Assembly (NCBI RefSeq): GCF_003018255.1
Contig: NZ_CP027440.1
Reading direction: 5' to 3' (one strand)
Length of the DNA: 64,000 nucleotides
Source of the DNA: Escherichia coli
GTDB lineage: Bacteria > Pseudomonadota > Gammaproteobacteria > Enterobacterales > Enterobacteriaceae
Shown: one piece after another, positions 13,886-15,691 of the stretch
Position numbering within the stretch: position 1 is the stretch's first letter
Layout of the letters: the number at the start of each line of letters is the position of its first letter
The notes under the pieces: generated by a model
Told to the model about the DNA's origin: nothing
The model's input: the letters and a program-made list of their open reading frames with translations, nothing else
The model's database searches: none
Made by a program: the position numbers and the translations under genes

Positions 13886-15691
13886 TTACTCATTCCGTAA
13901 CGACTTAATCAGCTCTGTCACGTTCTGCTGTTGCTGCACCAGGAACGCCTCCAGTCCCATTTTCCCCGTCGCGATGTCATCCAGCATTTGCTCCCACAGT
14001 GCAGTGGTGCCTGGATCTTTCAGCGTTTCCGGCAGGGCGTCAATCAGCGTGCTGGCGGTATCCGTTGCCAGCAGGAAACGACGCTGCTTAATCAGATAGC
14101 CGCGCTTAAGGAGCGTCTGGATAATCCCGGCGCGGGTGGCTTCGGTGCCGATGCCCGCGTTTTCTTTCAGCCGCTGTTTCAGGCGTTCATCGCTGACAAA
14201 ACGGGCGGCATTTTTCATCGCGGCAATCAGCGTCCCTTCGGTGTAGTGCTCCGGTGGCTGGGTCTGGCGGGCGCGAACGTCCACCTGTTCCACCTAGCAG
14301 GTTTGTCCCTGTTGCAGGGCGGGAAGTGCCTGCGTTTCTTCCGGTGAGTGCGTTGCCATTTCGCGCAAAAACAGTTGTCGCCAGCCGCTGACAATCACCA
14401 CTGAGCCACGGGCAGTCAGCGTTTCCCCGGCGCAGTTCAGGCGCAGGTCCGTTTTATCCACTTCGTGGTCTGGCAGAAACTGCGCCAGAAAATGGCTGCG
14501 TACCAGGCCGTAGACCTTGCGCTCGCTGTCGTTCATCTGCGTCAGATCTACCGTTTTACGGGTCGGGATGATGCCATGGTGGGCGGTGATTTTGCTGTCG
14601 TCCCACAACCGGGAGCGTTGCTGCAGATTAAGCTGCGTGGCGAGGGGCTGGAGTGAAGCGTCGCTGGCGACCAGCGCCGCCAGAACTTGTGGTGCTTCAT
14701 CGTGCATGGAGAGCGGCAGATAGCCGCAGTCGGTGCGCGGGTAGGTGGTGGCTTTATGGGTTTCATACAGGAGCTGGGCGATATCCAGAACCTCCTGTGC
14801 GCCCATGCCCCACTGTTTTGAGCAGGCCTGCTGCAGGGCGCTGAGAGTGAAGGCCTGCGGTGGCGGCGTTTTCTCCCGCCGGGTTGTCACGTCCATTACC
14901 AGCGCGGTTCCGGCTTGTTGCAGGCGTGCTGTGGCCTCACGGGCGGCGGATTCGCGGATGCAGCGGCTTTCGTCGTCACAGTACGCACTATCCGGCTGCC
15001 ACTGCGCCAGAAAGGAACAACCCTCCGCATGCAAACGGGCATCCACCCGCCACCAGGGGCGGGGCGTGAAGCGGGCGATCTCCCGGTCGCGCTCCACCAC
15101 CAGACGCAGGGTCGGCGTCTGCACCCGGCCCACGGAGAGCACGCCCTTGTGCCGCCGGTTCATTAGCGTGCAGGCGCGGGTCATGTTGATGCCGACCAGC
15201 CAGTCGGTGCGGGCGCGCGCCAGTCCGGCCTGATACAGCGGAAAGGTGCTGTCGCCGGGACGCAGAGTGGCGAGCGCCTTGTGGATACTGGCCTCATCCA
15301 GCGCCGACAGCCACAGCCGCTGGACCGGACCGCGCCAGCGGCATTGTTCCAGAATTTCGCGGGCGATGGTTTCGCCTTCGCGATCGGCGTCGGTGGCAAT
15401 CACCACTGCATCCGCCTGTTTCAGCAGCTTTTCGATGATACGGAACTGCTTATGCACCTCCGGGCGGATCACCAACCGCCATGCCGGGGGAATAAACGGC
15501 AGCTGTTCCGTCCGCCAGTGTTTCAGCGCCGGATCGTAATCCTCCGGCGCGGCCATGCTCAGCAGATGGCCGAAACACCAGGTGATGGTTACGGTGGCGT
15601 TATGCAGGTAGCCGTCGCTGCGGTTATGGGCGTCAAGAATTCGGGCGATGTCGCGTGCCTGAGAGGGTTTTTCGCACAGGTAAAGTTGCAT
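13886..15691 (-). pseudogene. topB: ICE DNA topoisomerase III (TopB-like), interrupted by one in-frame TAG at 14294-14296
   Basis: ORFs 14294..15691 (MQLYLCEKPSQARDIARIL..., Toprim and Topo IA motifs) and 13886..14293 are in the same frame, separated only by TAG; the downstream segment continues the C-terminal domain and begins at GTG. Confidence 0.7.

Follow-up and report, generated by a model that had tools for sequence, protein, structure and literature searches.

The topoisomerase III gene (topB) of an ICE in the Escherichia coli chromosome is, with a probability of about 90%, a young pseudogene inactivated by a single C→T change that converted CAG into TAG at codon 466, a recent loss of function in one clone. 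The gene lies on the minus strand of the window, by which we mean the whole stretch of 64,000 nucleotides that was analyzed. According to the list of open reading frames and the sequence itself, topB starts with ATG at position 15691 and runs through 465 sense codons (15691→14297) up to the amber codon TAG, which occupies 14296→14294 as codon 466. The stop codon is directly followed by GTG, and 135 codons in the topB frame (467-601) lead to TAA at 13888→13886. When 15691→13886 was translated as a single frame of 1806 nucleotides and 602 codons, stops were encountered only at codons 466 and 602. An earlier note on this DNA had described a TopB-like frame of 465 codons that ends at TAG and is continued by 135 further codons in the same frame. 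This description is exact with respect to both the frame list and the sequence, and all of its coordinates are correct.

For comparisons with family models and structures we used a restored product of 601 residues in which codon 466 was filled in. This protein matched the NCBIfam models PRK07726 with 816.2 bits (cut-off 597) and TIGR01056 with 744.8 bits (cut-off 515.75), in each case over residues 1-600. Residues 1-584 aligned with the sequences of E. coli topoisomerase III structures (PDB 1D6M, 1I7D and 2O19) with an E value of 3e-130. Because the restored product matches topoisomerase III models from end to end, the frame across TAG is not a chance open frame. The protein combines full-length matches to curated models with a Toprim domain and the catalytic tyrosine in its TYPR motif, as is characteristic for type IA enzymes of the TopB kind, and the naming of the gene as an ICE topoisomerase III in the earlier note agrees with the NCBIfam topoisomerase III models and with the RefSeq annotation of the ICE. 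An uninterrupted reading frame for the whole TopB core, on the other hand, is not present, as TAG intervenes at codon 466.

The part of topB upstream of the stop (codons 1-465, 14297..15691, minus strand) encodes Toprim, the catalytic tyrosine and most of Topoisom_bac, and both Pfam domains are recorded for the 465-residue product. The catalytic residue, Tyr317 in the sequence TTYPRTDC, aligns with Tyr328 of E. coli topoisomerase III and does not vary among 14 sequences. The counterpart of codon 466 in the E. coli enzyme is residue 474, and the alignment continues up to residue 592. The stretch 3' of the stop (codons 467-601 plus TAA, 13886..14293, minus strand) matches Pfam Topoisom_bac by itself, and the conserved topoisomerase IA core motifs RQTQPPxxYTEGTL and GIGTEATRAGII, also found in the form G(T/I)GTEATRAGII, fall within the part that is removed. 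This part is now untranslated or at most re-initiated. The 465-residue product, which keeps Toprim and the catalytic tyrosine and loses the last 135 residues, i.e. the C-terminal fifth of the core, is expected to be inactive.

The ancestral state of codon 466 was approached through intact relatives of the gene. Forty other complete E. coli genomes contain topB alleles that are 90-95% identical. The closest intact E. coli allele, that of NZ_CP062901, has 92.9% nucleotide identity, the same length of 1806 nucleotides without any indels, and is annotated as an intact protein of 601 residues. Its sequence at the site is TGC CAG GTG, as opposed to TGC TAG GTG in the window, and no other disruption of the frame was seen. 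Thirteen homologues from E. coli, Salmonella, Klebsiella, Citrobacter and Enterobacter (93-96% amino acid identity) are all uninterrupted single proteins of 600-608 residues, and the column corresponding to codon 466 (14294..14296) holds glutamine in nine and glutamate in four of them, flanked by invariant Cys465 and Val467. With all 13 proteins uninterrupted and a sense codon at this position in each, topB is naturally one gene and not two, and the stop does not represent a conserved signal for recoding. A naturally split two-gene topoisomerase is ruled out, since neither the homologues nor the two family models show any break at codon 466. The alignment to intact homologues that had been proposed as a check has thus been carried out, with glutamine or glutamate as the outcome and CAG in the closest intact E. 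coli allele, and it speaks for one of the explanations offered in the earlier note, namely inactivation by one nonsense mutation. The restored protein with glutamine at position 466 was absent from the public protein collection in an exact look-up, which indicates that the immediate ancestor is unsampled. Likewise, an exact 29-mer around codon 466 had no match in the GTDB species-representative genomes, so that no closer intact ancestor was recovered. The ancestral CAG is therefore deduced from alleles that are 93-96% identical and not from the exact ancestral allele.

The sequence context of the change points to its origin. Where the intact allele has CAAACCTGCCAGGTGGAACAG, the window has CAAACCTGCTAGGTGGAACAG, and the two differ at the site by CCAGG→CTAGG, a single C→T exchange that affects the inner cytosine of a Dcm site and places a T at 14296 within CTAGG (14297→14293, minus strand). 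Dcm methylates the inner cytosine, and deamination of the resulting 5-methylcytosine is the textbook explanation for CAG→TAG amber hotspots in E. coli. Such hotspots, with the change CCAGG→CTAGG at Dcm sites, were reportedly described in lacI by Coulondre, Miller, Farabaugh and Gilbert in 1978. The host possesses intact chromosomal dcm and vsr genes. Because the mutation struck the inner C of CCAGG, deamination is the most likely origin of the lesion: 5-methylcytosine at this position would have deaminated and escaped very-short-patch repair, thereby turning CAG for Gln466 into TAG. This scenario fits the site, although it is unprovable for a single event. The ICE also encodes an m5C methyltransferase, which we considered as the mutagen and rejected; it scores only 22.7 bits against PRK10458 (cut-off 710) and is part of a type II restriction-modification system. 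The relevant methylase is the one encoded by the host chromosomal dcm gene.

The earlier note had also considered that the stop might be a sequencing error, with a true sense codon at 14294-14296. Apart from the fact that a single-base substitution is a possible type of error, nothing specific speaks for this idea. The exact 465-residue product is present on 590 contigs in the public protein collection, among them E. coli KTE75 (ELE59474.1) and several JNE strains, and the exact 132-residue product that starts from GTG470 on 615 public contigs. These contigs derive from NCBI, ENA and Logan assemblies. KTE75 and the JNE strains were sequenced by different centers, and two complete genomes match the gene at 100% identity. 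In a gene index the allele occurs in 704 blocks, and the gene neighborhood was the same in all 24 contigs that were read. With the same truncated proteins called on about 590 and 615 independent contigs and in two complete genomes, a sequencing or assembly error is refuted for all practical purposes. Both the chromosome of E. coli JNE23-011 and JNE112863 match the window at 99.99% identity over 35-50 kb; in JNE23-011, the differences amount to four SNPs and one 1-bp indel over 50 kb. The allele itself is nearly invariant across its contigs. The mutation is thus real, and it appears to have been inherited vertically in a single E. coli clone that has been sampled hundreds of times (KTE75, JNE).

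Comparison with the intact allele also bears on the age of the lesion. We obtained dN/dS values of 0.09 upstream of the stop (codons 1-465) and 0.055 downstream of it (codons 467-601) at a synonymous divergence of 25-30% between the two alleles. By this measure, constraint has not been relaxed 3' of the stop, and the lesion is therefore young compared with the divergence of the alleles at synonymous sites.

Other short C-terminal TopB fragments of 73-139 residues were found in a cluster of C-terminal-fragment proteins from E. coli, Salmonella and Klebsiella, some of them on contigs of megabase size. These fragments hint that topB has been disrupted independently within the ICE family, but they could instead be assembly errors or partial genes at contig edges.

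The gene resides in an ICE of the PFGI-1/SPI-7/ICEclc (MPF-G) class that is inserted at leuX in the E. coli chromosome. The ICE portion in the window spans positions 1..28590, according to the RefSeq annotation of JNE23-011, which is 99.99% identical here, and to PADLOC and NCBIfam results, and the element extends to the left of the window up to an integrase and leuX (tRNA-Leu). The part inside the window comprises type IV secretion genes, traD, pilL2, STY4534, topB, PFL_4669, STY4528, parB, NsnABC and a type II restriction-modification system with Vsr. RefSeq/PGAP assignments for the JNE23-011 region, from which the ICE family names are taken, list an integrase, the MobH relaxase, type IV secretion genes of the TIGR0374x-0375x series, TraD, PilL2 and ParB, followed by cargo genes. 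By these names, MobH, TraD and the TIGR0374x-0375x proteins are accompanied by the complete parB/STY4528/PFL_4669/topB/STY4534 module. A tyrosine integrase of 558 residues is situated beside leuX on the left, and a repeat of the tRNA 3' end is found on the right. When topB was compared with PLSDB plasmids by megablast, no match was obtained, and we conclude that this topB is chromosomal and exclusively ICE-borne.

We also asked whether the broken topB is part of a general decay of the ICE, an idea that was rejected. RefSeq flags the integrase as "incomplete, missing C-terminus", yet its frame is uninterrupted over 558 codons. The gene (L004 18898-20574, left of the window and next to leuX) is collinear with that of a relative, with 87% identity over the first 416 amino acids compared, and the flag is probably an annotation artefact. 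The annotated lengths of the relaxase, the type IV secretion proteins and TraD are the same or nearly the same as in the relative. The other end of the element is marked by an attR-like repeat of the leuX 3' end, CGAGTCCGGCCTTCG[ACCTTCG]CACCA, at 28562..28590 on the plus strand. It contains a near-tandem insertion of 7 bp that is absent from attR of the intact-topB relative (L010, about position 6537) and that may be a second lesion affecting excision of the ICE. Apart from topB and this insertion in attR, every ICE gene looks intact and the element does not look generally decayed.

Several further features of the region were noted. Three cargo genes at 21211-25206, close to the end of the ICE, strongly match the PADLOC defense-system models NsnA, NsnB and NsnC (E = 1.7e-113, 1.4e-104 and 1.4e-83), while RefSeq names them only DUF262, DUF3696 and hypothetical protein. 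In the type II restriction-modification module (25274-28097), the restriction endonuclease gene (25274-26344, minus strand) overlaps that for the m5C methyltransferase (26283-27419, minus strand), an enzyme outside the E. coli Dcm family; a Vsr mismatch endonuclease gene (27645-28097) is oriented divergently from this pair. A pair of genes for a RelE/ParE toxin and a CopG antitoxin (7226-7745) lies together with a gene for a hypothetical protein of 413 residues (5939-7180) inside the conjugation cluster, between the DUF4400 and RAQPRD genes, whereas genes for an HNH endonuclease and an AAA ATPase take their place in the intact-topB relative. Upstream of the HTH and parB genes, an open reading frame for 296 residues (20105-20995, minus strand), which has no NCBIfam or PADLOC match, occupies the place of parA or dnaB in related islands. 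Compared with JNE23-011, the window carries a 1-bp deletion in an A-run at about position 21033, which shifts all later coordinates by one. It is intergenic (20995 to 21211) and located in the divergent promoter region between the 296-residue hypothetical gene and nsnA. The only other differences over 50 kb are SNPs at 9776, 9922, 27722 and 41120. At the junction of ICE and chromosome (28283-31000), a fragment of a VOC-family gene, a fragment of a phosphorothioated-DNA-binding restriction endonuclease gene and a truncated sialate O-acetylesterase gene (nanS) adjoining nanM and nanC were found, and these remnants suggest earlier island turnover at leuX.

What the lesion means for the ICE can be predicted by analogy. 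In ICEHin1056 of Haemophilus influenzae, disruption of the topB homologue orf11 lowers conjugative transfer up to 100,000-fold (PMC3739013). The Exc protein of the Bacteroides conjugative transposon CTnDOT, a topoisomerase III, is required for excision (PMC5812530, a review). Literature searches for transfer mutants in topA of PAPI-1 and for the strain names gave no usable result. If the element studied here behaves like ICEHin1056, termination of translation after residue 465 would yield an inactive TopB and conjugative transfer would be crippled, with the element remaining stably integrated and its cargo still in use. The ICE would then likely stay integrated and be inherited but transfer poorly, in agreement with its apparent confinement to one clone. 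The host chromosomal TopB might substitute for the ICE-encoded enzyme.

The predicted loss of function could be circumvented if full-length TopB were still produced in amounts sufficient for the ICE functions, either with the help of a suppressor tRNA or by read-through of UAG by near-cognate tRNA-Gln, which would restore the ancestral glutamine. Read-through or suppression had been raised in the earlier note and finds no support in our data: the stop is absent from all 13 homologues, which have a sense codon at the same position, and no tRNA gene was detected within the window. All four tRNA-Gln genes of the host JNE23-011 (glnV/X/U/W) have wild-type anticodons (CUG, CUG, UUG and UUG), so that a suppressor of the supE type was dismissed on the basis of these four genes. 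Pyrrolysine machinery is not known from E. coli. Basal read-through of UAG in E. coli is non-zero and often inserts glutamine, the other ICE genes look intact and no damage is seen in the 135 downstream codons, with the low dN/dS value of 0.055. However, an undamaged downstream frame is equally expected of a very recent mutation, and we regard sufficient production of full-length TopB as very unlikely. It is just as unlikely, if not more so, that termination at TAG is followed by re-initiation at GTG467 or GTG470 and that the fragments of 465 and about 132 residues assemble into a functional two-piece enzyme. Naturally split type IA enzymes do exist among some archaeal reverse gyrases, and the break in topB may be near the domain II/IV boundary, judging by the domain limits of E. 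coli topoisomerases I and III. GTG follows the stop directly, and GTG codon 470 (14282..14284, minus strand), which gene callers use as the start of an annotated 132-residue frame, is preceded by a Shine-Dalgarno-like element, AGGUG, that overlaps TAG and forms an anti-Shine-Dalgarno duplex of -6.9 kcal/mol compared with -6.6 kcal/mol for the true start. This GTG and its upstream element are, however, already present, unchanged, in intact alleles; hence nothing has evolved for re-initiation and the element at GTG470 is incidental. Equally good matches, with a duplex of -6 kcal/mol or lower, occur at 21% of the NTG triplets in topB. In addition, none of the 13 homologues is split, part of the core of the DNA-binding groove comes from the missing segment, and fragments produced by a random break rarely complement each other.

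A different question is whether the loss of TopB was favored by selection because it locks a useful ICE, with its fimbriae, defense and toxin-antitoxin genes, in the chromosome or spares the cost of transfer. Such a scenario would keep the molecular lesion of the main explanation and replace only its neutral cause by an adaptive one. The allele is fixed in a clone that has been sampled hundreds of times, the same lineage carries the 7-bp attR insertion as a second change related to mobility, truncated TopB fragments of this ICE family occur in other strains, and a topB knockout cuts transfer in ICEHin1056 (PMC3739013). Against this, a neutral hotspot mutation that hitch-hikes in an expanding clone explains the same data, and assembly errors or partial genes at contig edges may account for some of the other fragments. 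Moreover, with the allele almost invariant among its contigs, selection is not inferable from variation. An adaptive cause thus appears improbable. Equally doubtful is the broader view that the amber allele is not simply dead, be it that residual topoisomerase III activity, arising from UAG read-through with glutamine or from a two-piece enzyme initiated at GTG470, keeps the ICE mobile or that the knockout and the attR insertion were selected together as a domestication that locks the ICE with its fimbrial and defense cargo into a successful clone.

We therefore return to inactivation by one recent nonsense mutation as the preferred reading. The locus is an ordinary recent pseudogene and is already known as such, since RefSeq marks the gene "pseudo, internal stop". 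As the stop codon is real, this annotation should be retained, and the finding has little importance beyond annotation. Modest interest is added by the Dcm-hotspot origin and by the likely immobilization of an otherwise intact ICE. The locus provides a clean natural example of an amber hotspot mutation at a Dcm site, and the lesion marks an otherwise intact ICE of 60 kb as probably transfer-defective in one E. coli clone. It thereby bears on whether the ICE cargo, comprising fimbriae, NsnABC, restriction-modification and toxin-antitoxin genes, can still spread from this lineage.

The change in topB is identical to that at the Dcm amber hotspots in lacI, where the inner C of CCAGG is likewise replaced by T and CAG for glutamine becomes TAG. 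The lacI hotspots stem from a mutation spectrum, whereas topB presents a single natural event in an ICE gene for which the mechanism is deduced from context. With CTnDOT the element shares an ICE-encoded topoisomerase III that serves a mobility step; the two ICE families are unrelated, however, and topB may act in excision, replication or transfer. A closer counterpart is orf11 of ICEHin1056, which, as in the SPI-7, PAPI-1 and ICEclc islands, encodes a TopB homologue in the same syntenic replication/stabilization module (parB, ssb-like, topB). The lesion in ICEHin1056 was an engineered insertion in another genus, while the one described here is a natural nonsense mutation whose effect on transfer would follow by analogy. 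Finally, the chromosomal TopB of E. coli has the same family and fold as the ICE protein, and the catalytic tyrosine, the acidic Toprim residues and the C-terminal core motifs are conserved between them. The chromosomal enzyme has 653 residues, whereas the ICE protein, with 601, is devoid of the basic C-terminal tail, is encoded by an ICE and, in this lineage, breaks off where the alignment reaches residue 474 of E. coli TopB.
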